Assembly (NCBI GenBank): GCA_046314355.1
Contig: JBKBWQ010000001.1
Coordinates: 768,001 to 832,000, forward strand
Source of the DNA: Candidatus Altimarinota bacterium
Lineage (GTDB): Bacteria > Patescibacteriota > Gracilibacteria > 1-14-2-50-48-13
Length of the DNA stretch: 64,000 bases
Reading direction: 5' to 3'
The notes beneath the pieces are model-generated. The model saw only the letters and a list, made by a program, of their open reading frames with translations. It was not told the DNA's origin and did no database searches. Made by a program: the position numbers and the translations under genes. How positions within the stretch are numbered: position 1 is the first letter of the stretch; every line of letters starts with the position of its first letter. This document shows, piece by piece, positions 10,174 through 63,989 of this stretch.

Positions 10174-11004
10174 ATGTTTGAAACAAAGAATTTAGAGTCA
10201 GGAAGTAAAGAGCTCCCTCTCTCACCTTCAATAGAGACATCGAAGGACATTCTTGGTGCTGCAAAGCAGCTCATGCTTAAATTTGGGAAGAAGATTAAGG
10301 ATATCGCACTCATGGAAGTGAAGCTTCCTAAGTTTGGTAGAGCAGAAAAGGCTGCTGCCGTTGAGGACCTTTCAAAAAATACTGCTGAAGAAAATGGCGT
10401 ATTAGCGATGAATGTGCTAGAAGATACTCTCGAGGAGAATGCTGAGACTATTGAAACAGAGCAAAATCCTGAAACAGCTACTGATATTAAAGCCTATACG
10501 TCCAGTGGCATCACACTCGTACTTGATCGAGATGACAAAAATGTGCGAAGCAATAAGGCAGATGGCTTTGGACCAGATGAGAGATCTACTAAATGGAATG
10601 ATGAAACATGGTCAGCTTATCAAAAGCTAACCAACCGAAACACTACGATGCCGGATATTAATGTACCTACAAACACACCAGATGAGATCTTACATTTCAT
10701 GGTTTTGGCGGAACAGTCATTTAATACTCCTGTAGAGAACTTTAGCAAAGATATGCTCATCGGTAGAGCAGAAGCCAGCAAAGAATATATGGAAAGAATT
10801 GGTGTCATAAAAGCATTATTAATAACAAACGCTGCACAGGCATCTGCTGAAGCAACTGAATTAAAGAATGAAATGCTTGAGACAGGAGTATACGGAAAAG
10901 CACCTTCCCTTTCTTCTAATAAAGAGTATTCAGACGGAGAGATGATAGCAGCTATGGATAAAGTAAATACACAGCTAAAGAACCAGGAAGAATTAGATAT
11001 GTAA
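10174..11004 (+). CDS. hypothetical protein (276 aa)
   Basis: Long ORF downstream of a TGCTATACT extended -10; no recognised motif. Confidence 0.7.
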   Translation: MFETKNLESGSKELPLSPSIETSKDILGAAKQLMLKFGKKIKDIALMEVKLPKFGRAEKAAAVEDLSKNTAEENGVLAMNVLEDTLEENAETIETEQNPETATDIKAYTSSGITLVLDRDDKNVRSNKADGFGPDERSTKWNDETWSAYQKLTNRNTTMPDINVPTNTPDEILHFMVLAEQSFNTPVENFSKDMLIGRAEASKEYMERIGVIKALLITNAAQASAEATELKNEMLETGVYGKAPSLSSNKEYSDGEMIAAMDKVNTQLKNQEELDM

Positions 11005-11079
11005 TAAAAAAAGCAGAATATATTTCTATATTCTGCCGGGTTGGTAAGTTTTAAGAGTTCAAAGACCTATGCTGACATG

Positions 11080-11511
11080 TTAAACTGAGATAGTTTCCCT
11101 TGCCTTCATAATCAAAAACTCCTGCGACATAACTTCTGTTTCTATTTTACTGCCATTTACGGCAACAAAGTAGTCATGAGGTTTTTCTTCGATTTTTGCT
11201 ACTGAAATGAACGGTATTTTGCCGGTGACAAATCGACCTAATTTGTTTATACCTTCCTCTCCTGAATCAAAAACCTTTTGCAAGGTTGAGGTTTTGTCTC
11301 TAAAGACAATCACACTCTTCTTTGATTCTAATAAGTAGGTTTCAACGCCTTTGATCTTAACTATCGTGGGCATGTTGTCAATGAGTCCATTATTCAATAT
11401 ATATCTACATAGTTCCCATAGTTGAGAACTATACTTAGATGCTAATGTCTCATTGTTTTTCTCAGGAGGCGGCTCGGCCTTCTGAGGAGGTATGGGAGAA
11501 TGTTTTTCCAT
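11080..11511 (-). CDS. hypothetical protein
   Basis: ORF with an AAGGAGG RBS. Confidence 0.6.
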   Translation of the reverse strand: MEKHSPIPPQKAEPPPEKNNETLASKYSSQLWELCRYILNNGLIDNMPTIVKIKGVETYLLESKKSVIVFRDKTSTLQKVFDSGEEGINKLGRFVTGKIPFISVAKIEEKPHDYFVAVNGSKIETEVMSQEFLIMKARETISV

Positions 11512-11635
11512 CTCTTCCCTCCTTTCGTACTACTGTACAACAATGATAATATGTATGTTTTTGCGATTACTTACCAATATCGCAGAGACAGTATAAGGAG
11601 AGAAAGGAAGAATGCAATATTACTAATAATTTAGG

Positions 11636-14287
11636 CTATATTGCGTTCTTCTGCTTGTAATATTCTCTTAGTGCTATAGAAGGGATTCTAGTACTAATGC
11701 TATTACCGCTACGTGCTCCATTCATGAAATTATCTACAATTTTAAACTGTGCCTCTTTACCTAGCATATCAAACTCAAGCTTTACTGCTTCAAACATAGT
11801 GACCTGCATTTCTGTATTGAATTGTTCCTGAATGCTTTGCCTTATCTGCTCCTGTTCTTCCACGCTGAAGTTAGCAAACTTTTTACCTTTCTCTAAAGCT
11901 TCAGCATAGTCTTGATAAGTACTCGGTGCATTTACTTTTACAGATTCTTGTAAATACTTAGTGATTTCATCAAAGGGTATTAAATTCCCAATTGCAGTTT
12001 GTCCTGTCATCTGAGCATCTAAAAACATTTTAAGTATCTGCTTCTTCAAATCTTCAGAGAGTACATAAAAAGGTAACTTCCCCTGACGGAACATCTCATT
12101 CTGCTGTTCAAGAGAATGAAGTTTTTCAACAGTCTTTTTTATAGTATCTTGTTCTTTTTCATTAAACTCCTCATATTTCTTCACTCCTCCGATAAGTTCC
12201 TGATATTCCTTTGATGAGTTAGGATTACTTAGCTGAACTATACTTGCTTTGTAGTTAGCTGCTGCCTGATGGACATCAAACTCATTTACCAACTGATGCA
12301 TTTTTGTAACTTTATCTATCAGGTTAACATTAATAAGACCATCTTTAAGACCTGGCGTAAGGACACTGATAATATAATCAATGGCCTCTGGAGATGGGTC
12401 AGTGAGTCCATTTGCATCTAGTTTAGTGTTAACTATATACCCTACCTGAAGCTTCAAATATTCTGGATTTGTAGATTTATATGCTCTAGAGTTTTCTTTT
12501 TCCGTAATTCTATTTGATATTCCAAGGAGCTTAGATTCAATGCTTTCAAAGCTTTTAAGCTTTTTCTCACTAGCGTCCACATCCTCTTTTTTACTTTTTC
12601 GATATTTATCTAACTGTTCATAGCTGTATTTTCCACCAAAATCATCTACAATTCCTGCTTTCAAAGGCAGCACAGGAATACTTTTTATATTTCCAAAGCC
12701 TTCTTTACATTTCTTGACGAAGTCAGAGAGTAATGAGAGCTGAGTAACTGTTCTTACATCATCCTTAGGCTGCGAAACTTCAATATCATGTTTTACAGAG
12801 AGAAAGAACTTCTCAAAGAAATTATAGAGATGTACTGATTCTTTTCCTGGCTCCTCTGTCTTAGTAAATTCTGACACTTTAGAGAGTGCACTATTAATAA
12901 ATCTTACATACATACAGAATGTATAAAGACCAATATGTAATGGTGCTTCTTCATTTGCTATAGTTCTTAGAAGTGTCCTTTGCTGAGATTCACGCGGAAT
13001 ATAGTCACATCCAAATCCTGAGACACCAAACCATTTTTGAGATCTGCTGTCTGCAGTGGAAAAGGATTTTTGCCCTTTATATAAGAGCTTCATTACAGAC
13101 TGAATATTCTTCACTGGCACGCCGTAAATAGTTCCAGATGAATTTTCATCCTTTCCATAAAGAAAATCCATCAGATCTACCGTCTCTTCAGTAGGCTGGT
13201 ACAGAGAAAGAAGAGTTTTCTTAAAGTCATTGAGGGAGAGCTTATAGTATTCGTCGATAATATCCTGCTGCAGCTGTGCAACCTTGCCGTGCTGATCATA
13301 CTTAAGAGGATCAAAACTTATAGTAATCTCTTTTACAGCTTTATGCATTTTCTTTGCCTCAAGACTGTTTCTCTCTACATTCTTTATCTGATCAAAGTAT
13401 TCTTTCATCGGCTTAATGAAGCTCAATATTGCCTCGTAATACTGCAGTTCTCTTTGGTCATTACGGCTGAGATCATAATGAGTTTTAAAAAACACTGCCA
13501 TGTTATCGATCTCATCTTTTAGTTTATTGAAGAACCCATTATCTTTTAGTCTTTTGCTTGAAAGATTGTTCTCAAAACTAATAAGCGTTTCGTAGGCATT
13601 CTTCAGCGTCATCATGTACTTCACAGTATTATAAACGTATTTTTCGTCTTTAAATGTATAGATAACTGTAGTGGAATTAATAGCACTCCTTGGAGTAATC
13701 AGGTTGAGCTTTTCAAGATGACAGACTTTTTCTGCCCACTCAGGAGATTTAATAGAGTACTTTCCATCGGTTTTATCTGCTAACTTAAAGATCTTTTTAT
13801 CCTCAAAAAGTGCGCGCACATATTTCACAGTCTCTTGCTCGCTTGGTACCCTCTTTAGAGGTAAAGAGAAGAAGCTATCCTTCATTTGAGTAATATTTAT
13901 ATCAAGCACTCCATTTGGATCAGTGAGAATACCTGTAATTGCTCTCTCATTTTTATCGAGATTATTTTTCGTTTGAGTATACGGTTTAATTATTTCCTCC
14001 AGCTCTTTGATTTTATCAGTAAAGAGTTTTTCCTTTGCTCTCTGAGATGCAACCGCATTCTCAAGTACTTGCTTATCATCAGCTAATCCATTAACAGCCT
14101 CCAGACATACTTTCTGAAGACCCTGCTCGTAATTTCTAAGAGACATATTAGCAGGCTGGTTGTCCACAATATACTCAGCTCTAGGATCCCACCCAGAGTA
14201 CTTTCTTCTCTGATTATTTGTAGTCCTGATATTGAGAGCGTTTGAGTGATTGCCGTTCCCGTTTCCATTGTTATTATTAACTTCCAT
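11636..14287 (-). CDS. large hypothetical protein (883 aa) with C-terminal tandem repeat
   Basis: Long ORF, charged and helical in composition; two ~90-aa similar units at the C-terminus. Confidence 0.8.
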   Translation of the reverse strand: MEVNNNNGNGNGNHSNALNIRTTNNQRRKYSGWDPRAEYIVDNQPANMSLRNYEQGLQKVCLEAVNGLADDKQVLENAVASQRAKEKLFTDKIKELEEIIKPYTQTKNNLDKNERAITGILTDPNGVLDINITQMKDSFFSLPLKRVPSEQETVKYVRALFEDKKIFKLADKTDGKYSIKSPEWAEKVCHLEKLNLITPRSAINSTTVIYTFKDEKYVYNTVKYMMTLKNAYETLISFENNLSSKRLKDNGFFNKLKDEIDNMAVFFKTHYDLSRNDQRELQYYEAILSFIKPMKEYFDQIKNVERNSLEAKKMHKAVKEITISFDPLKYDQHGKVAQLQQDIIDEYYKLSLNDFKKTLLSLYQPTEETVDLMDFLYGKDENSSGTIYGVPVKNIQSVMKLLYKGQKSFSTADSRSQKWFGVSGFGCDYIPRESQQRTLLRTIANEEAPLHIGLYTFCMYVRFINSALSKVSEFTKTEEPGKESVHLYNFFEKFFLSVKHDIEVSQPKDDVRTVTQLSLLSDFVKKCKEGFGNIKSIPVLPLKAGIVDDFGGKYSYEQLDKYRKSKKEDVDASEKKLKSFESIESKLLGISNRITEKENSRAYKSTNPEYLKLQVGYIVNTKLDANGLTDPSPEAIDYIISVLTPGLKDGLINVNLIDKVTKMHQLVNEFDVHQAAANYKASIVQLSNPNSSKEYQELIGGVKKYEEFNEKEQDTIKKTVEKLHSLEQQNEMFRQGKLPFYVLSEDLKKQILKMFLDAQMTGQTAIGNLIPFDEITKYLQESVKVNAPSTYQDYAEALEKGKKFANFSVEEQEQIRQSIQEQFNTEMQVTMFEAVKLEFDMLGKEAQFKIVDNFMNGARSGNSISTRIPSIALREYYKQKNAI

Positions 14288-34004: not shown

Positions 34005-35219
34005 ATGGCAACGATCCCGCTTCACCGCAACTACTACGTCATCGACGGCAACTCATATCTCTACCGTGCATTTTTTGCCATTCCAAAGTTTTCTACAAAA
34101 GACGGCTTTGTCACCAATGCCATTTACGGCTTTGTAAAAATGCTTCTCAAACTTATGGCAGACAAACACTGTCATGAGATTATTGTAGTATTTGATCACA
34201 AAGGCGGTTCTTTCCGGCAGGAGCAGTTTGTAGAATATAAGGCACATCGTGAGAAAATGCCTGATGAACTGATACCGCAGATACCTTATATTCAAAAATT
34301 TGTAGGGTTACTTGGACTTCCAATACTTGTCATACCTGGAGTAGAGGCTGATGATACGATAGCAACCATTGCCTGTAAGCTAAGAGTAGATGATGAAAAG
34401 CACACATATATTATCACAGGAGATAAAGATATGATGCAGCTCGTACAGCATAATGTGTTCATTTACGACACGATGAAAAATGTCATATATAACCGTGAGG
34501 GAGTAAAACAGAAAATGGGAGTATATCCGGAACAGATACCTGATCTCCTCGGACTTATGGGAGATAGCGCTGATAATATTCCTGGAGTACCGGGAGTAGG
34601 ACCAAAGACCGCCTCAGATCTTCTTTCCAAATATAAAAACATGGAAGAGATCCTGGAGCATGCAGAGGAACAAAAAGGATCTCTGAAAACGAAGCTGGAG
34701 GAAAACCGGGAAATAGCAACGCTAAGCAAACAGCTTGCCATCGTAAAATGCGACGTAGAGATAGAGCATATAGATCTTGCTATGACGGAGCCGCAGATGG
34801 ATGAAATAATAAAGCTTGCAAAAGAACTGGAATTTCATTCCCTTATACGGGAGCTTGAGACTCTAGCAAAGGAACATGGAGGTACAGCCGCTGAACCTGT
34901 CCACGAGCTTCCTAGCTATGTAAAAGAAGAGATGAGTACAGAGTCAGAGTGGAAGAAAAATTTGAAGATCTTTGAAGCAGCTTCTACTTTGTATATAGAT
35001 TGCGATGCTTCAACTATGCATATGTATATGACAGTTGAAGGTAAAGTATATCCCATCGATCTCACTGATGAGAGTCTTCGTGCTCAAGTAAAACATTTTC
35101 TCTCCCAAAGATTTGAGAATAAAAAAGAGTCTCTTGTCTGCTACTCCACAAAACAATTTCTGCACTTTATTGGTACAGAAGTAAAGATCCTATCAAAGGA
35201 TCAAATGTCCATTTTCTAA
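34005..35219 (+). CDS. polA: DNA polymerase I N-terminal part (5'-3' exonuclease/flap nuclease domain)
   Basis: IDGNSYLYRAF, TNAIYGF, YKAHR, EADD, TGDKD, GDSADNIPGVPGVGPKTA; ends QMSIF*. Confidence 0.9.
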   Translation: MATIPLHRNYYVIDGNSYLYRAFFAIPKFSTKDGFVTNAIYGFVKMLLKLMADKHCHEIIVVFDHKGGSFRQEQFVEYKAHREKMPDELIPQIPYIQKFVGLLGLPILVIPGVEADDTIATIACKLRVDDEKHTYIITGDKDMMQLVQHNVFIYDTMKNVIYNREGVKQKMGVYPEQIPDLLGLMGDSADNIPGVPGVGPKTASDLLSKYKNMEEILEHAEEQKGSLKTKLEENREIATLSKQLAIVKCDVEIEHIDLAMTEPQMDEIIKLAKELEFHSLIRELETLAKEHGGTAAEPVHELPSYVKEEMSTESEWKKNLKIFEAASTLYIDCDASTMHMYMTVEGKVYPIDLTDESLRAQVKHFLSQRFENKKESLVCYSTKQFLHFIGTEVKILSKDQMSIF

Positions 35220-35234
35220 TATAAGATCATCTCT

Positions 35235-36641
35235 ATGTTCGATATACAAATAGCTGGTTTTCTATTAGATCCAGCAAGAAGAGAGCCTACACTCTCACAT
35301 TTAGTAGAAAAGCATCTGGATATAATCATCCCTGATGACCATGAAGAGCAGAAAGTTGTGGAAGCTCATTTTATGCCGCAGCTTCAGGAGATCCTGACAA
35401 AGAAATTAAAAGAAGAAGGACTCTATGATGTGTACTCTACGATGGAAGTGCCTCTTTCAGAAGTCCTCTCAGAGATTGAGATCACAGGTATAAAAATAGA
35501 TACTGCCTATCTCAAGGAACTCTCCGTAGAAATGACACGGGATATGCATGTGCTGGAGAAAGAAATTTATAAGATTGCCGATGAAGAGTTCAATATCAAT
35601 TCACCAAAGCAGCTCCAGGTAATTCTCTTTGAAAAATTGAAGCTGAGTTCCTTTAAAAAAACGAAAACTGGATTTTCTACAAACGTACAAGTACTTACGG
35701 AACTTGCAGAAGTACATCCTCTGCCAGCGAAGATTCTTGAGTACCGGCAGTTTCAGAAACTCCTCTCCACCTATGTGGATGTGCTCCCTACCCTAGTGGA
35801 TAGTGAGAACCGCCTCCATACTACATTTAGACAAACCATTGCGGCTACAGGGCGCCTCTCTTCCTCAGATCCGAATCTTCAGAATATCCCTATCAGAACA
35901 GATCTAGGTAGAAAGATACGAAAAGCATTTATCGCAAAAGAAGGATATAAACTTCTCTCCGCAGATTATTCTCAAATCGAGCTTCGTATGCTTGCTCACT
36001 TTTCTGGAGATCCTACACTTATTGAAGCTTTCACTGAGAGTGATACAGATATTCATTCCAAAACCGCAGCTCTTATCTTCAGCAAAACTCCAGAAGAAGT
36101 CACTTCTCAGGAAAGGCGTATAGCCAAGACTGTAAACTTTGGTGTGATTTACGGCATGGGACCTTTCAAGCTTTCACAAGATCTCAAGATCAGCCGAAAG
36201 GAAGCATCAGGATTTATAGAAAGATACTTTGAGACTTACAGCAAAGTAGATAGCTTTATGAAAGGACTAGAAGCTAATGCAAAAGATATAGGATGTCTAC
36301 AGACTCTCTCCGGCAGAAAACGCTACTTCCCAGAACTAAAAAGCAGCAACCGCGTACTCTACGAAGCAGCAAAACGAGAAGCCATCAACTTCCCTATCCA
36401 AGGATCCGCAGCGGATCTTATCAAGATTGCAATGCTGAATGTAGCAGCAGAGTTAAAGAAAAGAAAACTCTCTTCCCGTATGGTGCTCCAAATCCATGAC
36501 GAACTGCTCGTCGAAGTAAAAGAGGAAGAGGCAAAGGAAGTGACACATCTTCTCGTTGAGGAAATGCAGAATGTCTTAAAGCTTAAAGTACCGCTGAAAG
36601 TAGAGGCTGGGATTGGAGACAACTGGCTTGATGCACACTAG
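35235..36641 (+). CDS. polA: DNA polymerase I C-terminal part (family A polymerase domain)
   Basis: TGRLSSSDPNLQNIP, ADYSQIELR, KTVNFGVIYG, QGSAAD, QIHDEL; in frame with the upstream part after a TAA. Confidence 0.92.
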   Translation: MFDIQIAGFLLDPARREPTLSHLVEKHLDIIIPDDHEEQKVVEAHFMPQLQEILTKKLKEEGLYDVYSTMEVPLSEVLSEIEITGIKIDTAYLKELSVEMTRDMHVLEKEIYKIADEEFNINSPKQLQVILFEKLKLSSFKKTKTGFSTNVQVLTELAEVHPLPAKILEYRQFQKLLSTYVDVLPTLVDSENRLHTTFRQTIAATGRLSSSDPNLQNIPIRTDLGRKIRKAFIAKEGYKLLSADYSQIELRMLAHFSGDPTLIEAFTESDTDIHSKTAALIFSKTPEEVTSQERRIAKTVNFGVIYGMGPFKLSQDLKISRKEASGFIERYFETYSKVDSFMKGLEANAKDIGCLQTLSGRKRYFPELKSSNRVLYEAAKREAINFPIQGSAADLIKIAMLNVAAELKKRKLSSRMVLQIHDELLVEVKEEEAKEVTHLLVEEMQNVLKLKVPLKVEAGIGDNWLDAH

Positions 36642-36741: not shown

Positions 36742-37218
36742 TTACTCCTGACTAGCTCCTGGTGTTTTTCTTTCTTTCCACCAAAGATACCCTACAAGAC
36801 CTACTCCACCAATCGTCACAAAACTATCCGCCACATTAAATACAGGGAAAGATCCTATACTGATAAAATCCACCACGAATCCTCTGAATATTCTATCTAT
36901 AGCATTGCCTAGTGCTCCTCCTAGGATCATCATTACACATACGTAGAGATAAATATCCTGATATACCTTATACTTTTTGATAGCATAGATAATAAGTCCC
37001 AATAGGATTATAGTCACGATCTGCAGTGGAAGACCAGTGAGCGGTAGAGAGAAAGCAATACCTCTATTCTCCACGTAGAAGAGCTTCAGAAAATCGGGAA
37101 TAACTATAATCTCAGGTTTATAAGTAGCAAAACACCATTTCGTAATCTGGTCTGCAATGATAATATCAGTACAAAAACCACTTGCGAGCATGATCTGGGT
37201 ACGGGATGGAATTGCCAT
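36742..37218 (-). CDS. lspA: lipoprotein signal peptidase II
   Basis: DQITK, NRGIAFS, GGALGNAIDR, VVDFI, FNVADS. Confidence 0.95.
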   Translation of the reverse strand: MAIPSRTQIMLASGFCTDIIIADQITKWCFATYKPEIIVIPDFLKLFYVENRGIAFSLPLTGLPLQIVTIILLGLIIYAIKKYKVYQDIYLYVCVMMILGGALGNAIDRIFRGFVVDFISIGSFPVFNVADSFVTIGGVGLVGYLWWKERKTPGASQE

Positions 37219-37752: not shown

Positions 37753-40700
37753 TTAATATCCTTTCACTAATACTATTATCTTCGCCGCCTCTGCTCTTGT
37801 GAGCTTGTTTCCTGGGAAGAATACTCCAAGAGAATTTCCATCTGAATCCTTGTATCCATTTACGATTCCCATTTCATATGCAAAGTGGATGTATCTTGCA
37901 AACCATTCATCTGACGGAACATCAGTGAATACATCTGAAAGCCCGCTATGAATTTCCAAATCACTGAAAACTGTTCTTAAGATAAGCTTGAGAGCTTCTG
38001 CTCTGTTCACAAGATCATAAGGTCTGAATGTATTATCAGAGTATCCTTCAATCCATCCTTTTGCCTTTGCTACTCTCACAGCAAGGTCGAACCACTCAGG
38101 ATTCACATCTGAGAAAGGTTTTCCAGTCATGTTTGTATTCATTGGTACTTTCTTTCCGTCACATCCGAAGAGCATCTGTACGAGCTCTGAACGTGCTACA
38201 TAGGTATTTGGTCTGAATTCACCTAAAAGATTACCTGCTGCATCTTTATATCCTGTGAGACCGCATTTTGCAGCAAGTTTGAGAATATACATTTCTCCCC
38301 AATGTCCGCTAATATCATTGAATTTCATATCAGAATTACTGGAGGATCCGCCAGTACCTGTATTTCCATTCGTATTTGTACTAGTGCTTCCGCTTCCAGT
38401 AGCTGTAGAACCAGTGTTTGTATTAGTATTTCCCCCAGTACTCTGAGTTCCCTGAGCTGTTCCCACAGTTGAAGAAGTTCCTCCACCTCCACCACCTCCT
38501 CCTCCGCTTCCAGCAGTTGGAGTAGAAGAATTTTCAGCTACATTAAATGTTACGCTGTAGAGACTTGTTGCATCATTCTCAGCTGTCACTTCAATAGTTG
38601 CGGTATCACTTAAAGTCGCAGCTTGATTAGCAACCATAGTTGCTCCGGAGTTTGACACCACTCCAGAGATTGTTGGCACTGTCGTAGTCCCTGCAGGGAG
38701 ATAAACTACATAGGTATATGTAGATGGTGAGAAAGCTGGAACAAGGCTTCCTGACGATGTTGTAAGAGAGCTAAGAGTTGCATCTCCATTAGCTTGTGAA
38801 AAAGTAATCAAACCAAGTGCTGCATTATCAGGCTGATGAACCATTTTAAGTTCTATAAGATTCGCAGCAAGCAGACCTGCAAAATTATTTACTGTAGCCG
38901 TAACGTTACCTGCATAAGGTGCTCCTGTTGTCATAGAAGCTCCATTGGAAGCAGCATATTCAGGATAAGCAGTAGTCTGCGTCTGAGAATTCGCAAAGGT
39001 CTGATCATCGAGTTTAATAAAATTTCCAAGTGAAGCAGCAAATGTATTCTTTGTATTAGCTGTACCGCCGAAGACTACAGTACCGTACGTTGCTCCAGTG
39101 GAATTGTGGTTAAGGAATGTTACACCATTACCATTCGTACCATTAAAAGTATTCTTATTAAAAGTAATGTCCATTGCTCTAGGCGCAATCATACCGCTTG
39201 TGATTACCTTATTTGTGATCACAATATTATCAAAGGTACTGAGAGATGCCTCAGGAGTAAATGTATTTCCTTCAATAGTTACATTTGTGGAATTTGCATT
39301 ATTGATAGCCACTCTATGCTTTGTAAATGTATTATTTTTTACAAGTACTGGAGCTGAAGAAACGTTCTTTATGAGAAGACTCTGAAGTCCAGGTGTCTTT
39401 GGAGCAAAGGTATTTGCCTCAATAGTGATATTCCCACCTGAATTTGGCTCTGTAATATCAATACCCGCCCCCTGTATTTCATTGTATGAAATCTCCAATG
39501 GACCATTAGAAAATTGACTTAAGATATCATTATAGGAAAAAATAGTATTTTTCTTATCATCTGCTCCTCCGATAACTCCACGTACCTGTGCAACATAGAT
39601 CCCTCGTCCAACAAAGGGAGTCTGCGCATCAACACCATAAACTGTATTTCCATAAATATTTACCTCTGTAGTTGTTCCTGTTACTTCTATACCATGTGAT
39701 CTCCATGGAGCATTTACATCCATGATGAGATTATCATGAATAGTAACAAGTCCAGGAATATTGGTTGCCTTTATACCATTTTGCGCACTAGCATTTGTGA
39801 GCTGAATGGTAAGATGATGTATATTCACATCTGCAGCCGTAATACTTACTATACTAGTACCATTACCAGTAAGGACAGTACCTCCTCCACTCTCACTACC
39901 TGCTATTTCAAGTGATTTATTGATCGTGATATTCTCTGGAAAAGTTCCCTCAGCAATGCTAATCACATTTCCGTTCTGAGTTACCATATCGTCAATGGCA
40001 CTCTGAATAGTACAGAATGAAACACCCTTTGTAGTGTTCTCTGCCACGATAGTTCCTGCTACACCTACTGTTCGTGGAGTAACGCCTCCATTATCATAGA
40101 TGTTAGCACATACCACTGGAGAATTTCCTCGTCCAAAGTATTGATCAGAAATATTACTCTGATCTCCGTCTGATCCTGGAGCGGTTGAACTTACTCCCAT
40201 AACATAAGGTGTATGACCTGCTTGCTGCTGAAGATCTACATCATTGCCGCTAAGTTCATTTCCGTAGACGGTCATCGCAACTCCCTCCACCACAATACCA
40301 AATCCTTCACTAGTGCTCGGTTGTACATAACCTGATACTTCATTATTTTTTAGTACAACACCTCTTGGGATATCAGCATTATTATTTGCTGCTATCCATC
40401 CTCTTCTCATAACTGCTATGCCTGCCATGTCTCTGACATCTCCACTTGCAATGGGACCTGTCATACTCACTTTATTCCCAGAAACAACAATACTACCATC
40501 ACCAGATTCTGCTCCAGTACCATTTGGGACCTTGATTTCAATTCCGAATCGTCCGTTATTTGTCAGGATATTATCTGCAATAATGTTTGCACCTGCTCCA
40601 GAAGTCAGTCCTGTTGCAGCAATTCCATTATCAGTATTACCAGTAACTGTATTTCGTGAAATATTTACTCCTGAAGCTGAACCATCCTGAAGCTCGATAC

Positions 40701-41322
40701 CGCAACAGTTATTTCCAGTTACCGTATTATCTGTAATTGTAATGTTTTTCTTAAATCCGTTCCAGATAACAATACCTCGTGTCTTGTTATTAGAAGAAAT
40801 TACATGAGTAATAGTGACTCCATCAACTGGTCCATTAGCATAGATACCCGCAGGGTTTGATCCACCTGAGATACCATTACCACTAACCGTAGTGTTATTA
40901 ATATTTAATCCGTTGTTTCCTCCATTCGCGTGAATACCACTTCCCATAGTAAAGTTCTGAACAACGAGATTTGCTATCTCAACATTTATCGTACCAGTAG
41001 TGATAAAAATTCCATTACCAGCCTTTGAAGTACCATCGATAATAGTACCTGTCCCAGTTCCCACTAGCTGAAGCGTCTTACTTACAGTTACATTTTCATT
41101 ATATGTACCTGCATCAATTTGAATAATATCACCTGCCGTGGCAGCATCTATTGCAGCTTGAATTGTTGTATATGTTTGTGTTGGTCCAACATTGTGGGTA
41201 GTAGGTCCTACCGCTTGTGCTACAAAAAAACTGACGGACATGATAGCTGCAGCTGCGACAAAAAACGTACGAAGAGACGTGCGATTCATTCGCATCCACA
41301 TGCTTTGAGTAGTCAAATTCAT
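37753..41322 (-). CDS. large surface protein: parallel beta-helix (pectin-lyase-like) repeats, cadherin-like beta-sandwich and SLH domains
   Basis: TIQAAIDAA...GTYNE cap (twice), NNxxxGI repeats, DATLSSL...FSPSTYTY, Gly/Thr linker, three SLH repeats. Confidence 0.85.
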   Translation of the reverse strand: MNLTTQSMWMRMNRTSLRTFFVAAAAIMSVSFFVAQAVGPTTHNVGPTQTYTTIQAAIDAATAGDIIQIDAGTYNENVTVSKTLQLVGTGTGTIIDGTSKAGNGIFITTGTINVEIANLVVQNFTMGSGIHANGGNNGLNINNTTVSGNGISGGSNPAGIYANGPVDGVTITHVISSNNKTRGIVIWNGFKKNITITDNTVTGNNCCGIELQDGSASGVNISRNTVTGNTDNGIAATGLTSGAGANIIADNILTNNGRFGIEIKVPNGTGAESGDGSIVVSGNKVSMTGPIASGDVRDMAGIAVMRRGWIAANNNADIPRGVVLKNNEVSGYVQPSTSEGFGIVVEGVAMTVYGNELSGNDVDLQQQAGHTPYVMGVSSTAPGSDGDQSNISDQYFGRGNSPVVCANIYDNGGVTPRTVGVAGTIVAENTTKGVSFCTIQSAIDDMVTQNGNVISIAEGTFPENITINKSLEIAGSESGGGTVLTGNGTSIVSITAADVNIHHLTIQLTNASAQNGIKATNIPGLVTIHDNLIMDVNAPWRSHGIEVTGTTTEVNIYGNTVYGVDAQTPFVGRGIYVAQVRGVIGGADDKKNTIFSYNDILSQFSNGPLEISYNEIQGAGIDITEPNSGGNITIEANTFAPKTPGLQSLLIKNVSSAPVLVKNNTFTKHRVAINNANSTNVTIEGNTFTPEASLSTFDNIVITNKVITSGMIAPRAMDITFNKNTFNGTNGNGVTFLNHNSTGATYGTVVFGGTANTKNTFAASLGNFIKLDDQTFANSQTQTTAYPEYAASNGASMTTGAPYAGNVTATVNNFAGLLAANLIELKMVHQPDNAALGLITFSQANGDATLSSLTTSSGSLVPAFSPSTYTYVVYLPAGTTTVPTISGVVSNSGATMVANQAATLSDTATIEVTAENDATSLYSVTFNVAENSSTPTAGSGGGGGGGGGTSSTVGTAQGTQSTGGNTNTNTGSTATGSGSTSTNTNGNTGTGGSSSNSDMKFNDISGHWGEMYILKLAAKCGLTGYKDAAGNLLGEFRPNTYVARSELVQMLFGCDGKKVPMNTNMTGKPFSDVNPEWFDLAVRVAKAKGWIEGYSDNTFRPYDLVNRAEALKLILRTVFSDLEIHSGLSDVFTDVPSDEWFARYIHFAYEMGIVNGYKDSDGNSLGVFFPGNKLTRAEAAKIIVLVKGY

Positions 41323-41871: not shown

Positions 41872-42645
41872 ATGATAACAAAAGCCCAAATACATTTTGT
41901 AAAAGATCTTCATGCCAGAAAGCAGCGGCTCACTGAAAAGCTTTTTTTCTGTGAAGGCACGAAAGGTGTCAAAGAGCTGCTAGCAACCTTTGAACTTCAC
42001 AGCCTGTTTACTACTGCATCGTGGGTAGAGAAAGAAGAGAGTACTCTCGTAAATATACCATCTGAAAAGATCTTTCTCTCTGAGGGAAAAGAGCTTGAGA
42101 GAATGTCCGCTCTCAAGACTGCGCAGGATGTAATAGCGGTGTTTCATATTCCAGATGTAAAATCTCAAATAAGTACAACGGAGAGTACTCTTATCCTCGC
42201 TCTAGATCATATAAGTGATCCTGGAAACCTCGGCACCATTATAAGAACCGCAGACTGGTACGGCATCGACACTATTCTCTGCTCAGAGGACACAGTAGAT
42301 GTATGGAGTCCAAAGGTAGTCCAGGCAACCATGGGCTCTCTGGGTAGGGTTCATCTCCATTACACTGACCTAAAAAAAGCACTTTCAGAAATACAGAGTC
42401 CGGTATTTACTACGGCAATGACAGGTGCTTCTATCCAAACTTTTGATTTTCCAGAAAGCTGCGTCCTCCTTATGGGAAATGAATCTGTAGGTGTATCTGA
42501 GCAGCTCACAGCATTATCTACATCAAAGCTACACATTCCAGCATATAGGCATAAAAACCCTGCAAATGGTCAGGCAGAATCTTTAAACGTAGCTATAGCT
42601 ACAGGAATAGTACTTCAAGCATACCGAGGTAAGCATTCACATTAA
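41872..42645 (+). CDS. TrmH/SpoU-family RNA methyltransferase
   Basis: DPGNLGTIIRTADW, KVVQATMGS, MGNESVG, ESLNVAIA. Confidence 0.92.
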   Translation: MITKAQIHFVKDLHARKQRLTEKLFFCEGTKGVKELLATFELHSLFTTASWVEKEESTLVNIPSEKIFLSEGKELERMSALKTAQDVIAVFHIPDVKSQISTTESTLILALDHISDPGNLGTIIRTADWYGIDTILCSEDTVDVWSPKVVQATMGSLGRVHLHYTDLKKALSEIQSPVFTTAMTGASIQTFDFPESCVLLMGNESVGVSEQLTALSTSKLHIPAYRHKNPANGQAESLNVAIATGIVLQAYRGKHSH

Positions 42646-43913: not shown

Positions 43914-44510
43914 TTATACTAATACTTCATTCTTTTTTGCAGTAGGTAATTTGTCTCTCCATAAAGCAAAAAACATAAAAGAAGTGATAATAACAAACAC
44001 TGCGGGCTGTAATGCAGCTTCCCATGTAAATGTATCAACAGATGCCCATAGGAATAGACACGAGAACCAGTTAATTAACCATGCAATTGGATCTTCTTCA
44101 GGAGTATGCAAATTGTGAACACCCATAGGATAGAAGGCAACAAGCATAGCAAACTGACTCGAAATAATCCCAAATAGCGGATCAGTTGAAAATCCCCATA
44201 AGAGAATTCCGAGAATCGCCATTACAAAGCAAATCTTGTCTTCTGTACTCCATCCTTTTTGTCCGTACTTATAGGCAATGAAAGCAATAGCAAAGCTTGT
44301 CATTACTGCCGCTAGATTGACTAAATTCCAGCTTTTAGCAATAAACATACTGACAAACCCTAATACATCTAATCCAGCCCAGATAATCCAGGTTACCTTA
44401 TACGTTTCCTTTCCATTCAGGAGACTTTTTATGTAAAGAACTCCTGAGATGATGAAGAGTACACTCGCTATAATCTCTAAGATTCCTTTTCCCACGTTAT
44501 TTCCTTTCAC
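43914..44510 (-). CDS. multi-TM membrane protein
   Basis: About six to seven hydrophobic segments, TWIIW motif. Confidence 0.7.
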   Translation of the reverse strand: MKGNNVGKGILEIIASVLFIISGVLYIKSLLNGKETYKVTWIIWAGLDVLGFVSMFIAKSWNLVNLAAVMTSFAIAFIAYKYGQKGWSTEDKICFVMAILGILLWGFSTDPLFGIISSQFAMLVAFYPMGVHNLHTPEEDPIAWLINWFSCLFLWASVDTFTWEAALQPAVFVIITSFMFFALWRDKLPTAKKNEVLV

Positions 44511-44678: not shown

Positions 44679-45653
44679 ATGAAATCTATAAAAGAACAAC
44701 TTTTTCGAACAGTCGTAGAAATCCCTGAGTCTACAGTAAAGATTGATCATACACTTCCTACACTCATGATTGGTTCCTGCTTCACTGAAAATATGGGAGC
44801 TTTTATGCAGCATTCCAAATTTCCCATCATCATTAATCCTACCGGCATAGTCTACAATCCCCTCTCTGCACTGAGAGTATTGGAAGTGCTTATGAGTAAG
44901 AAAATATACACTGCCTCCGATCTATTTTTTTCAAACGGTCTCTGGGCTTCCTATGATCATCATGGAAGTTTTTCTTCCAGTTCTCAGGAAGAGTGTCTCA
45001 CCAAGATTAATACTGCTCTCTCAAATGCAAGAGCACATCTTGAAAAAACAAAGATACTTTTTATTACCTTTGGAACCTCATGGATCTATAGATTGAAAGT
45101 AACAGGAAAAGTTGTCTCAAACTGCCACAAACAGCCTGATACTTTATTTGAGAGATCTCTACTTAAAGTAGATGAAATAACAGATGCATATAAAATTGTC
45201 CTGGAAAAACTCCATACGCTCTACCCTGACCTTCATGTTGTCTTTACTGTAAGCCCCATAAGGCATTGGAAAGAGGGAGCTCACAATAATCAGATCAGCA
45301 AGTCTCTCCTGCATATTTCCATTGAAAAGTTGACTTCAAATTTTTCATATACAGGATATTTCCCAAGCTACGAAATAGTTATGGATGAGCTTCGTGATTA
45401 CCGGTTTTATACTGAAGACATGCTGCATATCTCAGATGCTGCTACCAGATACATATGGGAACGGTTTCAAGAAACTTTTATGTCCCCTGAGACCCGTACT
45501 CTTTCAAAAGAAATTGAAGATATACAAAAATCACTCTTGCATCGTCCTTTCAATTCTGATACAACACAACATAATCAATTCAGAGACAAGTTATCCCAGC
45601 GCATTCAAAACCTGGTACATACATATCCTTTTTTGATTTTCGAAGGAATTTAG
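44679..45653 (+). CDS. GSCFA-domain protein
   Basis: IGSCFTEN, NPTGIVYNP, ITFGTSW, VSNCHK, FTVSPIRH, YFPSYE, DELRDYRFY..DMLH. Confidence 0.9.
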   Translation: MKSIKEQLFRTVVEIPESTVKIDHTLPTLMIGSCFTENMGAFMQHSKFPIIINPTGIVYNPLSALRVLEVLMSKKIYTASDLFFSNGLWASYDHHGSFSSSSQEECLTKINTALSNARAHLEKTKILFITFGTSWIYRLKVTGKVVSNCHKQPDTLFERSLLKVDEITDAYKIVLEKLHTLYPDLHVVFTVSPIRHWKEGAHNNQISKSLLHISIEKLTSNFSYTGYFPSYEIVMDELRDYRFYTEDMLHISDAATRYIWERFQETFMSPETRTLSKEIEDIQKSLLHRPFNSDTTQHNQFRDKLSQRIQNLVHTYPFLIFEGI

Positions 45654-45669
45654 AGGATTACAGTTCAAG

Positions 45670-46653
45670 ATGAATCTTTATGTTAAGGAAATTCTTCATA
45701 CCCTGGTAGACAGTCGAAATACTAGTGAAGAAGTGGATATTGCAATAGGGTACGGCTCTGCCGTAATGGAACATGGTGATCAGCGAAAATCCCCAGGTCT
45801 GGATATAATATTAGTTGTAAAAGACGTCATTCGTTTTCATCAAGTAAATATGAGAAAGTACCCAGAGGACTATTCTCTTTTGATGCATCTAGGAGGAGCA
45901 GAAATGTTTACTAGGATTCAAGATACAGGAGGCGCGATTTCATATAATTTAATGACTACACCTAAGAATCATAGACAGGAATACGGAGCTTCTCAACGAA
46001 TAATCAAGTACGGAGTAATCAGTACTGAAGCCTTTATCAAAGATCTCAGAGAATGGCTGAGACTCTATGTCGCCGGAAGAATGCATAAACCCTTTTATAT
46101 CATTAAGCAGGGTTCTGCGGAAATTCAGGAAGTAATAGAAGAAAACCTTAGCTTTGCAGTAAGAGTTGCACTACTTTTATTAGCAAAGGATGAAGTGACA
46201 CATGAAGAACTTTTTAAAGCGATCACTTCCCTCTCCTACATGGGAGATCCGCGTCCTGAACATCCTGATAAGGTCCGAAATATTGTCTCTGCAAATAGAG
46301 AGCAGTTTCATTCTCTCTATAAAAATGTGCTCACAAATAATGAATTTTTTCAGAATGATCAAGATGCAAAACTGATCTTGCCTCCTCATGCCCGTGACTA
46401 TATGAAGCTGCATCTACCAAAGCAAGTAGCAGCAATGCTTCCTGAATTCTATATGACATTTGATGATAATGTCTTTCAAAAAGTCATGACTGACGCTATT
46501 CAAAGAATCGTTTCACAGCCGGCACTTATACAGATTTTTAAAGGTGTTTTGACAGGCAAGCCTTCAGAGACTATTCCCTATGGAATCAGCAAAGGACTGA
46601 AATCACCAAAAATTAGAAAAATACTTACGCCATTTGGGTATAGAGAAAAATAG
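45670..46653 (+). CDS. Tam41/Mmp37-type phosphatidate cytidylyltransferase
   Basis: GYGS, LDIILVV, IKYGVIS, DL..W..LYVAGRMHKP, LSYMGDPR, E...KVRNIV. Confidence 0.85.
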   Translation: MNLYVKEILHTLVDSRNTSEEVDIAIGYGSAVMEHGDQRKSPGLDIILVVKDVIRFHQVNMRKYPEDYSLLMHLGGAEMFTRIQDTGGAISYNLMTTPKNHRQEYGASQRIIKYGVISTEAFIKDLREWLRLYVAGRMHKPFYIIKQGSAEIQEVIEENLSFAVRVALLLLAKDEVTHEELFKAITSLSYMGDPRPEHPDKVRNIVSANREQFHSLYKNVLTNNEFFQNDQDAKLILPPHARDYMKLHLPKQVAAMLPEFYMTFDDNVFQKVMTDAIQRIVSQPALIQIFKGVLTGKPSETIPYGISKGLKSPKIRKILTPFGYREK

Positions 46654-46759
46654 AATGCTTAAAGTAAATCATAGACATTTACCCTGTCTGCGTGCTATAA
46701 TTCATCGATAAGGCTGTCTTCGCCAGATCCATTCTTTACATTCTCTGATTCTCCTTCCT

Positions 46760-51766: not shown

Positions 51767-54313
51767 CTATTCTTTATCGGCAAATACAACTAGCCGTTTA
51801 GAATACTGCTGTTGTTTCTTATCCCATACCCCGTCGCAAGTAATAAGATTCAAGTGCGCCTTACCGTCGCTAGAGCTGAAAATGGCAGCTGCATCATCAG
51901 AAGCACCATAAAGTTTGCTCTCACGCACAATAAATGAAACTATATTCCCTTTCTCATCCTTTACTAAAATCTTATCTCCTGGTTTTAGTTTTTGTAAATC
52001 TGCAAATACACCTCTCACATTATTGATCCAGTTGAGGTGTCCATCCATCACTGCGCTGCCAATATCACCTGGGTATGTTCCAAGTTCATACCAGCCTGCA
52101 TCAGAATAAGACTTTGGAATGTCCATCGCACCGTCTGCTGTCAGCCCTACTTTCTGGACTGCAGCATTAACCGCGATACTTGGGATAATAATATTTACTG
52201 GCAACACCCTTGTTTCAGGCACAACCCCTGTTTTTGGAAGCTTAGGAATAATAACAGGTGAAACAACGATAGGTGCTGGAACTGGAGCAGCGACTGGGGT
52301 GATAGCAGCAGGGACTCCAGGAACTGGAAGTGCAACAACTACAGTAGCTACTGCAATATCTCTGACTCTTATACCATTGCCAGTACCGCTCGCGATAGCA
52401 GTGTTTGTAGTAGTAGTTCTTAGGTATGCTCTACACGTATAGATCCATCTTTCATTCGTATCAAGCTTTGAATCTTTGTTTGTATCTCCAGAAACATATC
52501 TCACAGGGCGACATTTATCATCCGTCAAAGTCACGTTACTAAGTGGGACAGTACCAGTATTATTAATGATTTCTGTATAAGTTGCCCACCCCCCGCCTGA
52601 AGGTAAAGTAAGTGGTCTTGGAATTTTTATTACATGAATAGAAGGAGCCACAATAGGCTCGCCGACTATAACAGTAGCACTGGCTATGTCTACAGTACTG
52701 ATGTTATTTGCCCACCCAGTGGCAACTACTGTATTTGTATGAGTCTCTGTAAGTGTTGTGGTGCATTTATGTACCCAGACTTCCGTCAGATCAAGGATTG
52801 CATTCCCGTTGGTATCTCCTGAGAATAAGGCAATAGGACTGCATGTATCCCCCACTAACGTGATATTATTTACTACTACTGTTCCAATATTACGTAGAGT
52901 GTACGTATATTCTACTGCTCCAGGACCATTAGGTAGAGCAAGAGGACTTGGGGTTTTTACAATATCAATAAGCGGAGGAACTGCAGGTGTAGTAACTGGT
53001 GTACTCACAGGAGGAGTATATCCCCCTCCACCACCGGAAGTGGGAGGGAAAGGAATATCATTATTTGTAATAATACAAAAACGTGCCTCACTCACATTGA
53101 GCGTAACAATACCTAACGCATTACAGTCACCGGAAAATGACTGCGTATAATTAGGGTCAGCCGTTTCTGTCACCGTATATATAGCTGGAGCAAGTGTATT
53201 TGTAATACCTGAGACAACAGGTGCCCCATTGATGAATAATGGGAAATCGGCAATCACTTTAGTTCTGCCGCTATCATTGATCACCACCTTTGTGACTGTA
53301 ATTGTAGAAGGTGCAATATCATTATTTGTAACCGTACATGTCCTATCATTTTCTGATGCAAGAATAATATTTCCAGCCGCATCACAATCTCCGCTATAGG
53401 TCACCGTATACCCAGCAAGTGCATCTTCACTTACCGCGTAGGTACCTGGATCCAAAACATAAGTAGTCCCCAATACATCAACTCCTGCCTGCGGGCTGCC
53501 TGCAACATCAATGCCGCCTGTAGTTACATGCAGTGTCGCATCAGAAGAAACTCCAATACCTGTATTATCATTAATCACTGTCTTGATTACATGAAGCGTT
53601 GCAGTACATGTGGGAACAGTAATAGTATTCGTATCAGTAGTCACAGTACCTGCCCCAAGCGACAATGCTCTACCATTCCAAACTGTATTTGCTCCGATAG
53701 TAATGGCTGTAGCATCATCAATCACAGTTCCAGCAAAAATAGTATTTGCCGCAAGAGTAGTCGCTGCGGTTGGCGTCCAAAATACATCGCAAGCTGATGC
53801 TCCAAGTAGCGTCACAACGGAACCCGCCGTAGACGTAAGTGCTCCTGTCGGTCTAAAAATATAGGTACCCGCACCGCTCAATGTAAGTGGTCCTCCGATA
53901 TCCATAGCACCCGTGCTACAGTAGACTCCAGGTGTATATACTCCAACTGGACCATGAGTTGCATCTGTGGAAAGATCGATAGCTCCAGCAGCAAAAGTAA
54001 AGGTACAAGGTTGAACTCCTAAAGCACCAAGCGCAGTATTTACATCAATACGCGCAGCCGGTGTAGGGGCACCAGGACCATAACTGGTATGAATACCAGC
54101 AGGTACCGTTGCCGGTGGAGTAGTAAATCCAATACCGCCGTCGATCGTTGTACCCGCGGCAACATTCGTATATGTTCCTGCAAGAACGCCGTAAGTCTCA
54201 CCTGTTCCAAGATCAGGAGTCGTAGCTGCATTAGCCACATTTCCTGAGAAACCAAATAATAATGTAAAAGCGAATACGACTACAATCGTATTCTTCCTAA
54301 GGAAATTTATCAT
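51767..54313 (-). CDS. ice-binding-like (DUF3494) adhesin with Ig-like repeats, LPKTG motif and fused class F sortase
   Basis: Signal peptide; YGVLAG, TPGVYC, GTYIF, CDVFW, FAGTV, GRAL (DUF3494); KTVIND...TCTVTNND repeats; LPKTG at 52226-52240; sortase GWY, GH, LITC, R motifs. Confidence 0.85.
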   Translation of the reverse strand: MINFLRKNTIVVVFAFTLLFGFSGNVANAATTPDLGTGETYGVLAGTYTNVAAGTTIDGGIGFTTPPATVPAGIHTSYGPGAPTPAARIDVNTALGALGVQPCTFTFAAGAIDLSTDATHGPVGVYTPGVYCSTGAMDIGGPLTLSGAGTYIFRPTGALTSTAGSVVTLLGASACDVFWTPTAATTLAANTIFAGTVIDDATAITIGANTVWNGRALSLGAGTVTTDTNTITVPTCTATLHVIKTVINDNTGIGVSSDATLHVTTGGIDVAGSPQAGVDVLGTTYVLDPGTYAVSEDALAGYTVTYSGDCDAAGNIILASENDRTCTVTNNDIAPSTITVTKVVINDSGRTKVIADFPLFINGAPVVSGITNTLAPAIYTVTETADPNYTQSFSGDCNALGIVTLNVSEARFCIITNNDIPFPPTSGGGGGYTPPVSTPVTTPAVPPLIDIVKTPSPLALPNGPGAVEYTYTLRNIGTVVVNNITLVGDTCSPIALFSGDTNGNAILDLTEVWVHKCTTTLTETHTNTVVATGWANNISTVDIASATVIVGEPIVAPSIHVIKIPRPLTLPSGGGWATYTEIINNTGTVPLSNVTLTDDKCRPVRYVSGDTNKDSKLDTNERWIYTCRAYLRTTTTNTAIASGTGNGIRVRDIAVATVVVALPVPGVPAAITPVAAPVPAPIVVSPVIIPKLPKTGVVPETRVLPVNIIIPSIAVNAAVQKVGLTADGAMDIPKSYSDAGWYELGTYPGDIGSAVMDGHLNWINNVRGVFADLQKLKPGDKILVKDEKGNIVSFIVRESKLYGASDDAAAIFSSSDGKAHLNLITCDGVWDKKQQQYSKRLVVFADKE

Positions 54314-54573
54314 TATATTTGGGTAACAGTTATATACTGACAATCATATCACGAATACTGCTTTACATGTAAAAAATCTATTGTTGAATTATAAAACTCT
54401 GTTAATTGATTAGGATACATATCCATCAAAAAGTAAATTAATCTCCTAGCTCCTGGTAGGCATAGCGTAATGGATACTCCTAAATCATATCGTAAATAAA
54501 CTTAACTTTTGATAACCTTGATTTTTAGCAGCATTAGAAATATTATTATCTATTATTTTCTGATGACTCTCCT

Positions 54574-56933: not shown

Positions 56934-57728
56934 ATGAAAATTGTAAAAATGATTGTAGGTATCATAACAGTTATCCAGTGTGTAGGGTGTTCAGTACAAC
57001 CATTAGCTGCCATTCCTTCTGTACAGGCTGTAGCAATGGATACTTCAGATGTAAAAGTTATAGAAACTCATACACATGAAGATGAACATGCATCAAGTCC
57101 AGTTATTACAGAAGTATCTGTAGAAAAAAGTGCAAAACAGAAATTTGTTGAAGAACTTATCAGTAAGTTTCCAGCACATCTTTCTACAAGTCTTACTCTC
57201 ATACAGGTTAACGATAGTTTCGGAGTAAGAGGACTCTCAAACGGATCTCGTATGTATATCAACCTTGGAAAGATGTCCGACCAGGAACTTTCCGCTGTAG
57301 TTATACATGAGCTCGGTCATGTTATAGATCTAGGTTATCTCTTAGGTAAAGAGACTCCTAGTCCATTTATGGATGGTACCTCACAAGTGTATGCAAATGA
57401 CCCTAGTGTCGGCTTTTATTCTATTAGCTGGGAAGCTAGCAATAAAAGAAAAAGCAGAACCCCTCTGGATTATGTAAGTGGCTATGCCATGAGTGATCCT
57501 TTTGAAGACTTCGCAGAATCTTTTGCGTACTATGTTTTACAGGGGCAAAACTTTAGAAAAATGGCTAAGGAAAACGAAGCTCTCAAACAAAAATACTCCT
57601 TTATTAAAGAATTTATTTTCCAGAATAAAGAATTTGATCTTGGAGAAGCAGCTTATATTTCAGACGGTCGTTCATATGACGTCACCGTTCTGCCATATAA
57701 GTTTGAAAACCTAATTGCAGCATTGTAA
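56934..57728 (+). CDS. secreted/lipoprotein zinc metallopeptidase
   Basis: Lipobox-like CVGC, HELGH, YVSGYA...EDFAES; TTGACA-N16-TAAAGT upstream. Confidence 0.75.
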   Translation: MKIVKMIVGIITVIQCVGCSVQPLAAIPSVQAVAMDTSDVKVIETHTHEDEHASSPVITEVSVEKSAKQKFVEELISKFPAHLSTSLTLIQVNDSFGVRGLSNGSRMYINLGKMSDQELSAVVIHELGHVIDLGYLLGKETPSPFMDGTSQVYANDPSVGFYSISWEASNKRKSRTPLDYVSGYAMSDPFEDFAESFAYYVLQGQNFRKMAKENEALKQKYSFIKEFIFQNKEFDLGEAAYISDGRSYDVTVLPYKFENLIAAL

Positions 57729-63614: not shown

Positions 63615-63989
63615 CTATTGTCCTCCTGGTCCTCTATTGTCCATACTACCTCTTCCTGAATTATCATCTCCGCTTCTATCATTGTTATCACTACTGCCTC
63701 GATTATTATCTCCATCTAAACTTCGATACTCTCCATTATTATCTTCACGTTGATTGTCATTCCTATTCTCTTTTTTGTCTTTATCATCTAAACGGTCATC
63801 CTTACCGTTCAGATTAAAGTTTAAGTCAAAGTTATCATTTATGTTTGCTGATGATGTCACAGGAGCAAGATCTGGAATACGGTTTACATTAAAATTCTGA
63901 TTCACGCTTTCATTTACCACTGTACTGCAAGAAGCAAGAATACATACAACAACGAGCATTCCTCCTAACTTTTTTGAATGATCTTTCAT
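63615..63989 (-). CDS. small lipoprotein with Asp/Asn/Gly-rich tail
   Basis: Lipobox LASC; DNNRGSS/DDNSGRG repeats. Confidence 0.65.
   Translation of the reverse strand: MKDHSKKLGGMLVVVCILASCSTVVNESVNQNFNVNRIPDLAPVTSSANINDNFDLNFNLNGKDDRLDDKDKKENRNDNQREDNNGEYRSLDGDNNRGSSDNNDRSGDDNSGRGSMDNRGPGGQ

Follow-up and report, generated by a model that had tools for sequence, protein, structure and literature searches.

A Tam41-family gene in a probable CPR bacterium and its recurrence in CPR and DPANN genomes

The activation of phosphatidic-acid-type lipids with CTP to the corresponding CDP-lipids is carried out in bacteria and eukaryotes by CdsA/CDS and in archaea by CarS, enzymes with an integral membrane fold that is unrelated to Tam41, although the net reaction is the same. 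The mitochondrial Tam41/TAMM41 enzymes (S. pombe, PDB 6IG2 and 6IG4) combine a nucleotidyltransferase (NTase) domain with a winged-helix domain and end in basic C-terminal helices, which serve as a membrane anchor in the S. pombe protein. Bacterial members from Firmicutes and Proteobacteria are also known and have been shown to be active, the Firmicutes enzyme producing CDP-diacylglycerol (CDP-DAG) according to PMC11646218, which cites Kimura et al. 2022. For one of them, FbTam41 of a Firmicutes bacterium, a structure with CTP-Mg exists (PDB 7ECD). Its source is a gut Firmicute which we take to belong to a genome-reduced RF39-type lineage.

How CPR and DPANN cells obtain and rework their membrane lipids is called an open question in PMC7242380. 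Among the titles and abstracts listed in literature searches, none connects Tam41 with CPR or DPANN, and Kimura et al. 2022 may already list CPR sequences. Likewise, the text and three supplement files of PMC7414124 do not mention Tam41; the large data tables outside these files may bear on the matter.

Here we describe a tam41 gene in a 64,000-nucleotide stretch of DNA, which was analysed as a whole and is called the window below. Since bacterial Tam41 enzymes have already been described and are active, it is a further member of a known family. The main interest lies in the recurrence of tam41, standing alone and under selection, among CPR and DPANN organisms, which are thought to lack lipid synthesis. 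The gene and its upstream surroundings are as follows:

45670..46653, + strand: tam41, ATG start, 327 amino acids, predicted phosphatidate cytidylyltransferase of the Tam41/Mmp37 family
45653..45657, + strand: Shine-Dalgarno-like GAGGA of putative function, 12 nt before the tam41 ATG and overlapping the stop of the GSCFA gene
44679..45653, + strand: GSCFA-family gene (SGNH clan) upstream of tam41, with GSCF at residue 32 and DMLH at residue 247 (Pfam E 7.2e-91)

The sequence-only reading had identified the open reading frame as Tam41 from an ordered set of motifs, all of which were recovered in the right order: YGS at 28, DII at 45, HQVN at 57, DYS at 67, KYGVIS at 113, DL..W..LY.AGR..KP at 125–141, LSY.GD.R at 188–195 and E...KV.NIV at 197–206. 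The Pfam search proposed there gave a match to PF09139 (Tam41_Mmp37) that scores 220.5 bits (cut-off 24; E 4.8e-65), extending over residues 19–309 and profile positions 9–320 of 322, i.e. nearly the full length. A sequence search of the PDB produced three matches, all of them Tam41 (6IG2 and 6IG4 with E 4e-31, 7ECD with E 1e-24). No CdsA/CDS profile of Pfam or NCBIfam matched the protein; the NCBIfam set used contains no model for Tam41 or GSCFA. Hydropathy (Kyte-Doolittle, 19-residue window) peaks at a mean of 1.32, so that there is no strongly hydrophobic segment.

The mitochondrial subgroup is characterized by a targeting extension and a eukaryotic host. Here, YGS is found at residue 28, leaving no presequence; in 36 named eukaryotic rows the stretch ahead of YGS has a median length of 93 residues. 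The closest proteins (301–320 amino acids, 50–53% identical) are presequence-free as well. The neighbouring genes are bacterial (ftsA, ftsZ, murB, polA, lspA, dnaK and genes for five SLH-domain proteins). Judged from sequence and model, the open reading frame is a true, full-length Tam41 and probably an active one, and CTP:phosphatidate cytidylyltransferase activity can be predicted with high confidence.

The predicted structure points in the same direction. Its parts can be delimited as follows:

45721..46107, + strand: NTase domain, about residues 18–146, from strands and helices of the model; borders approximate
46117..46437, + strand: winged-helix domain, about residues 150–256, borders approximate, containing LSYxGDxR, E...KVxNIV and N209
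46465..46626, + strand: C-terminal helices, residues 266–319, basic and partly amphipathic, putative membrane anchor

The AlphaFold2 model, built from a 45-row alignment, reached a pLDDT of 90.5 and a pTM of 0.89. With Foldseek, five matches at E<=0.001 were obtained, all Tam41 chains, with TM scores of 0.70/0.82 to 7ECD. In VIA-align, 7ECD was the best match (Z 30.7, with 263 residues aligned at an rmsd of 2.1 Å) and S. pombe Tam41 the second (6IG4, Z 21.3), the next family following at Z 8.8. Taken separately, the NTase domain can be superposed on other nucleotidyltransferases, among them 3C18 and ANT(4'), with Z 8.3–8.8, and model residues 158–256 match the winged-helix folds of ORC, Cdc6 and FOXN1 with Z 6–7.

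The NTase domain contains Y28-G29-S30, D45, K113, Y114, D125, R137, K140 and P141. In human Tam41 the residues of the CTP pocket are given by PMC8935507 as K109, R133, K136, T199 and N208, and in yeast, as stated in PMC7018664, the mutation D220A abolishes activity. Mapped via the 6IG2 alignment and a named jerboa protein, human K109, R133, K136 and N208 correspond to K113, R137, K140 and N209, and yeast D220 to D125; K113, Y114, R137, K140, P141 and N209 agree with the human CTP pocket. The lone mismatch is human T199, which is D200 here, in a variable column with D in 3 of 23 rows. According to the accounts in PMC11646218 and PMC2794190, Tam41 retains only a single one of the acidic residues that make up the canonical NTase motif. 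The corresponding stretch here is LDIIL, in which D45 is the sole acidic residue and invariant in all 23 rows.

At the C-terminus, the model contains helices at 266–295, 298–309 and 313–319, with pLDDT falling below 50 at 321–325. Residues 283–327 carry a net charge of +7 versus -4 for the remainder of the protein, the hydrophobic moment of the helices reaches 0.63, and in 16 of 18 related loci the last 45 residues are charged +4 to +12. These features suggest by analogy with S. pombe Tam41 that the helices may act as a membrane anchor.

Taken together, the protein resembles FbTam41 in being bacterial and presequence-free and in its fold including the C-terminal part, but it is only about 27% identical, falls into a separate well-supported clade and comes from a probable CPR host rather than a gut Firmicute. 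With the mitochondrial enzymes it shares the two-domain layout, CTP-pocket residues, the essential aspartate and basic C-terminal helices, whereas it differs in sequence (about 32% identity), in lacking a targeting sequence, in the aspartate at the human T199 site and in being encoded by a prokaryote.

For the distribution of the gene, one pattern scan of 185,579 GTDB species genomes was performed. It yielded 37 matches, 18 of which were confirmed, in 17 genomes. CPR or DPANN labels were carried by 13 of these genomes: eight CPR (four Peribacteria, one Peregrinibacteria, two Gracilibacteria/Altimarinota and one Patescibacteria UBA4473), which bears out the proposed occurrence in CPR, and five DPANN (four Woesearchaeota and one Pacearchaeota). 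The other four were labelled Methanosarcinales (two), Pseudomonadales (one) and archaeon (one). These latter labels are doubted because one such copy, L016, groups with Pacearchaeota and Woesearchaeota at 99/88, and those of Methanosarcinales and Pseudomonadales may be wrong; in the loci L006, L016 and L014, which bear one or the other, Tam41 falls among the CPR/DPANN copies. NCBI already names two of the Woesearchaeota copies phosphatidate cytidylyltransferase.

The enrichment in CPR and DPANN is in part built in, because the two scan patterns were derived from CPR/DPANN-like proteins. In detail, they match 23 of 28 CPR/DPANN-clade proteins that came from other sources, 43 of 64 named fungal and 5 of 11 animal proteins, and none of 24 oomycete, 3 plant or 66 Bacilli-like ones. 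A large 7ECD-like Tam41 clade, with one member named Bacilli bacterium, is thus invisible to the patterns, which may also hold for the proteobacterial copies described in the literature. The best scan hit is 35% identical to the Tam41 studied here, and the host's own gene is absent from the hits. No alphaproteobacterial label appeared in the GTDB scan with patterns that match 43 of the 64 named fungal copies, and no match indicating mobile carriage was found in 50,697 phage and 72,556 plasmid records. Within a scan biased towards these groups, Tam41 thus recurs among CPR and DPANN, though rarely. As the gene is rare even there, most CPR/DPANN cells manage without it.

Around the related genes, the CdsA, PgsA, Cls and PlsC families were absent (Pfam, best five matches per protein) from 143 of the 166 open reading frames within 5.5 kb of tam41; the other 23 comprised 15 from L005, L008 and L013, most of them orthologous to genes among the 143, plus 8 from L016–L018. 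What the search for lipid genes did bring up was a single GDSL lipase, a single PEBP and a single HAD protein. At the related loci tam41 is a stand-alone gene. Synteny is retained within Peribacteria (L004, L005 and L008) and within L011–L013. Four informative pairs gave dN/dS values for tam41 of 0.03, 0.14, 0.24 and 0.23, a fifth pair being identical, compared with lower values of 0.01–0.11 in six comparisons of flanking housekeeping genes. In the relatives, tam41 is under purifying selection.

Two of the 18 copies are broken: in L010 (8567–9424) a stop and a frameshift interrupt the gene, in L017 (9953–10800) a frameshift near the end. Both breaks lie near the 3' end with loss of the basic C-terminal helices and may reflect decay or assembly errors. 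L002 and L003 are contigs of one MAG; their tam41 genes are identical, but the genes upstream share just 80% identity, which suggests either that the bin is mixed or that there was a recent sweep. In L007, tam41 is followed at a distance of 86 nt by a reverse transcriptase gene (10960–12744, + strand), behind which come two large unknown open reading frames.

The presence of Tam41 in symbionts which are thought unable to build lipids suggests that it serves to rework lipids taken from other cells. Our favoured reading, with a probability of roughly 0.6, is that the protein is a cytoplasmic, peripheral-membrane CDP-DAG synthase which activates phosphatidic acid obtained by scavenging, so that head groups can be rebuilt; salvage as the role of Tam41 is given the same probability. 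The host would probably lack fatty-acid synthesis like other CPR, and phosphatidic acid would be derived from scavenged lipid. As in known Tam41 enzymes, the C-terminal helices would dock on the membrane, and CTP would sit between the NTase and winged-helix domains, with CTP and phosphatidic acid binding in order. In the presence of a divalent metal, the two would be converted to CDP-DAG and pyrophosphate. CDP-DAG might then pass to a separately encoded CDP-alcohol phosphotransferase, which would rebuild head groups such as that of phosphatidylglycerol.

One possible need for phosphatidylglycerol would be lipoprotein maturation, in which it is the donor used by Lgt. The window encodes the lipoprotein signal peptidase LspA (36742–37218, - strand, above the NCBIfam cut-off) and two lipobox-like proteins (56934–57728, + strand, and 63615–63989, - strand), which together imply a need for a diacylglyceryl donor. 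No match to the CdsA, PgsA, Cls or PlsC families was found among the 53 open reading frames of the window.

Two other readings keep the chemistry but change its setting. If Tam41 had replaced CdsA, phospholipids might be made de novo or from free fatty acids with no salvage of intact host lipids. In E. coli lacking CdsA, Tam41 supplies CDP-DAG when co-expressed with a eukaryotic CDS, and some CPR, the Nealsonbacteria, possess near-complete pathways with PlsY and PlsC, as described in PMC7242380. Against this, CPR and DPANN are reported to lack complete lipid synthesis in PMC7242380 and PMC8421398, the former finding a complete pathway in none of 675 CPR genomes and the latter no archaeal ether-lipid synthases in Woesearchaeota. 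In addition, no acyltransferase was found near tam41 at the loci examined. We therefore consider such a replacement unlikely.

Alternatively, the acceptor in CPR/DPANN might be lyso-phosphatidic acid, archaetidic acid (with Tam41 taking the place of CarS) or a polyprenyl phosphate. At least five tam41 genomes are labelled DPANN archaea, PMC7242380 reports that lysolipids are enriched in CPR-rich fractions, and identity to the characterised Tam41 enzymes amounts to just 26–32%. Since, however, the full residue set and the C-terminal helices superpose on 7ECD, which uses phosphatidic acid, we attach little weight to a different acceptor. A soluble, assayable enzyme at a branch point of phospholipid synthesis makes the question of CPR/DPANN lipids testable, and its lipid preference would reveal head-group rebuilding as well as the use of ester or ether lipids by the archaeal copies.

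The sequence-only reading had gone further and joined Tam41 with the upstream GSCFA gene in one module for salvage or remodelling of host lipids. In such a module the SGNH-type protein would deacylate or transacylate a host lipid and Tam41 would activate the product. The two genes lie on the same strand, the gap of 16 nt between the GSCFA stop and the tam41 ATG was recovered exactly, and no terminator-like site was found between them; they are probably co-transcribed. GSCFA moreover retains the GSCF serine and the DxxH word, and in the related locus L015 the GDSL lipase lies four open reading frames upstream of tam41. On the other hand, GSCFA is absent from all 18 related loci, a sample that does not extend to P0002 and P0082, the nearest two relatives, and of ten window proteins searched against these loci Tam41 alone matched. 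The short gap means little, because tam41 often follows closely on genes unrelated to it: in 6 of the 17 loci having an upstream open reading frame, a pheT, ogg, scpA or ABC-F gene ends no more than 34 nt before it.

The GSCFA family itself has no known activity, and the SGNH families characterised so far act mostly on carbohydrates, according to PMC9487903. A sequence search of the PDB with GSCFA gave no match. The best matches, from six plasmid records, are Bacteroidota proteins with 47–48% identity, and in Bacteroides finegoldii the GSCFA gene precedes murF-alr. A joint module is thus quite improbable, whereas lipid salvage remains the likeliest role for Tam41 itself.

Downstream of tam41 a further element was noted:

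46672..46701, + strand: sigma-70-like promoter match (11/12 with TG) before mgtE, a consensus match only

It is the best of 18 matches in 4 kb, where shuffles give 12.1 expected, and suggests that mgtE is transcribed separately from tam41. An mgtE gene in the same unit was considered and dropped in view of this promoter-like site of its own and the absence of mgtE from the related loci.

For the phylogenetic analysis three vertebrate-like proteins were dropped, and an identity filter brought 427 sequences down to 262. The FastTree of these 262 requires three changes of prokaryote label, of which the well-supported branches force only one. In a quick mixture-model tree CPR, DPANN and the protein studied here were grouped together (SH-aLRT 91). 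A more careful tree used 64 rows, picked after viewing the FastTree result and leaving out most unnamed protist-like rows; in this unrooted tree one branch parts 23 named eukaryotes from 19 named prokaryotes at 67/84, a split recovered in 74% of 200 bootstrap trees, the bootstrap being incompletely settled. The protein falls into a four-row clade with its nearest relatives (100/98), which is weakly sister to the Bacilli-like, 7ECD-like clade (70/90). Deep branches differ between the tree methods. The tree is unrooted and weakly supported, so that an ancient transfer may have run in either direction. Several separate transfers to archaea were also considered and set aside, since the constraint to a single archaeal clade was not rejected (p-AU 0.448).

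Gene transfer involving eukaryotes, as raised before, has to be divided into a recent and an ancient event. That the gene was recently acquired from a eukaryote, results from a chimeric assembly or is an inactive passenger might be thought from its database relatives, which are mostly eukaryotic with fungi as the first named matches (30–37%), from three Peribacteria copies standing among eukaryote-like rows in the FastTree, and from the two broken copies. Forcing the clade together with fungi lowered lnL by 27.75 and was not rejected (p-AU 0.123). The gene nevertheless has a GC content of 0.383 (average over 52 genes of the window 0.388) and a typical codon use (codon fit rank 33 of 52), lacks a presequence and groups with the 50–53% identical relatives on the prokaryotic side, and among relatives synteny is retained and dN/dS lies far below 1. 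Recent transfer from eukaryotes is therefore unlikely, and the three possibilities taken together appear very remote to us, while an ancient event in either direction is compatible with the constrained tree.

According to the salvage reading, the gene would be part of a long-resident, patchy prokaryotic Tam41 pool comprising Gracilibacteria-related CPR, Woesearchaeota and Pacearchaeota, and gut Bacilli. Such prokaryotic copies bear on the origin of mitochondrial Tam41. It is tempting, though in our view rather doubtful, to go on to suppose that Tam41 is a salvage enzyme passed among lipid-auxotrophic symbionts across the divide between bacteria and archaea, by which DPANN would activate bacterial-type ester lipids, and that the mitochondrial enzyme would have its sister or its source in this prokaryotic pool instead of in the alphaproteobacterial endosymbiont.

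A CPR identity of the host is plausible. The contig measures 1,619,055 bp, and the window reads in code 11, TGA being the stop in 5 of 52 genes, which would suit a Peregrinibacteria-like CPR lineage that uses this code. Like loci of Peribacteria and Gracilibacteria, the window also contains SLH proteins and a PolA 5'-3' exonuclease encoded on its own. The polA gene is split within one frame (TAA, 15 nt, ATG) into genes for 5'-3' exonuclease and polymerase at 34005–35219 and 35235–36641 (+ strand), and the Gracilibacteria locus L018 contains a stand-alone exonuclease open reading frame 40% identical to that of the window.

Some further features of the window were recorded. A full-length tmRNA (22733–23154, - strand) was found with Rfam at 105 bits and missed by ARAGORN. 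The 198-amino-acid membrane-like protein at 43914–44510 (- strand) belongs to no Pfam family, and its Atlas look-alikes are bacterial clusters, one with a SET domain fusion. For the SpoU-type methyltransferase at 41872–42645 (+ strand), Bacteroidota are among the best plasmid-collection matches with about 40% identity, Vibrio being equally good. A type II/IV secretion-type ATPase with a KH domain is encoded at 26344–27810 (- strand). Finally, two large surface proteins are present on the - strand, one at 37753–41322 with beta-helix and SLH domains and one at 51767–54343, in which ice-binding-like, SpaA and sortase domains are combined in a single open reading frame.
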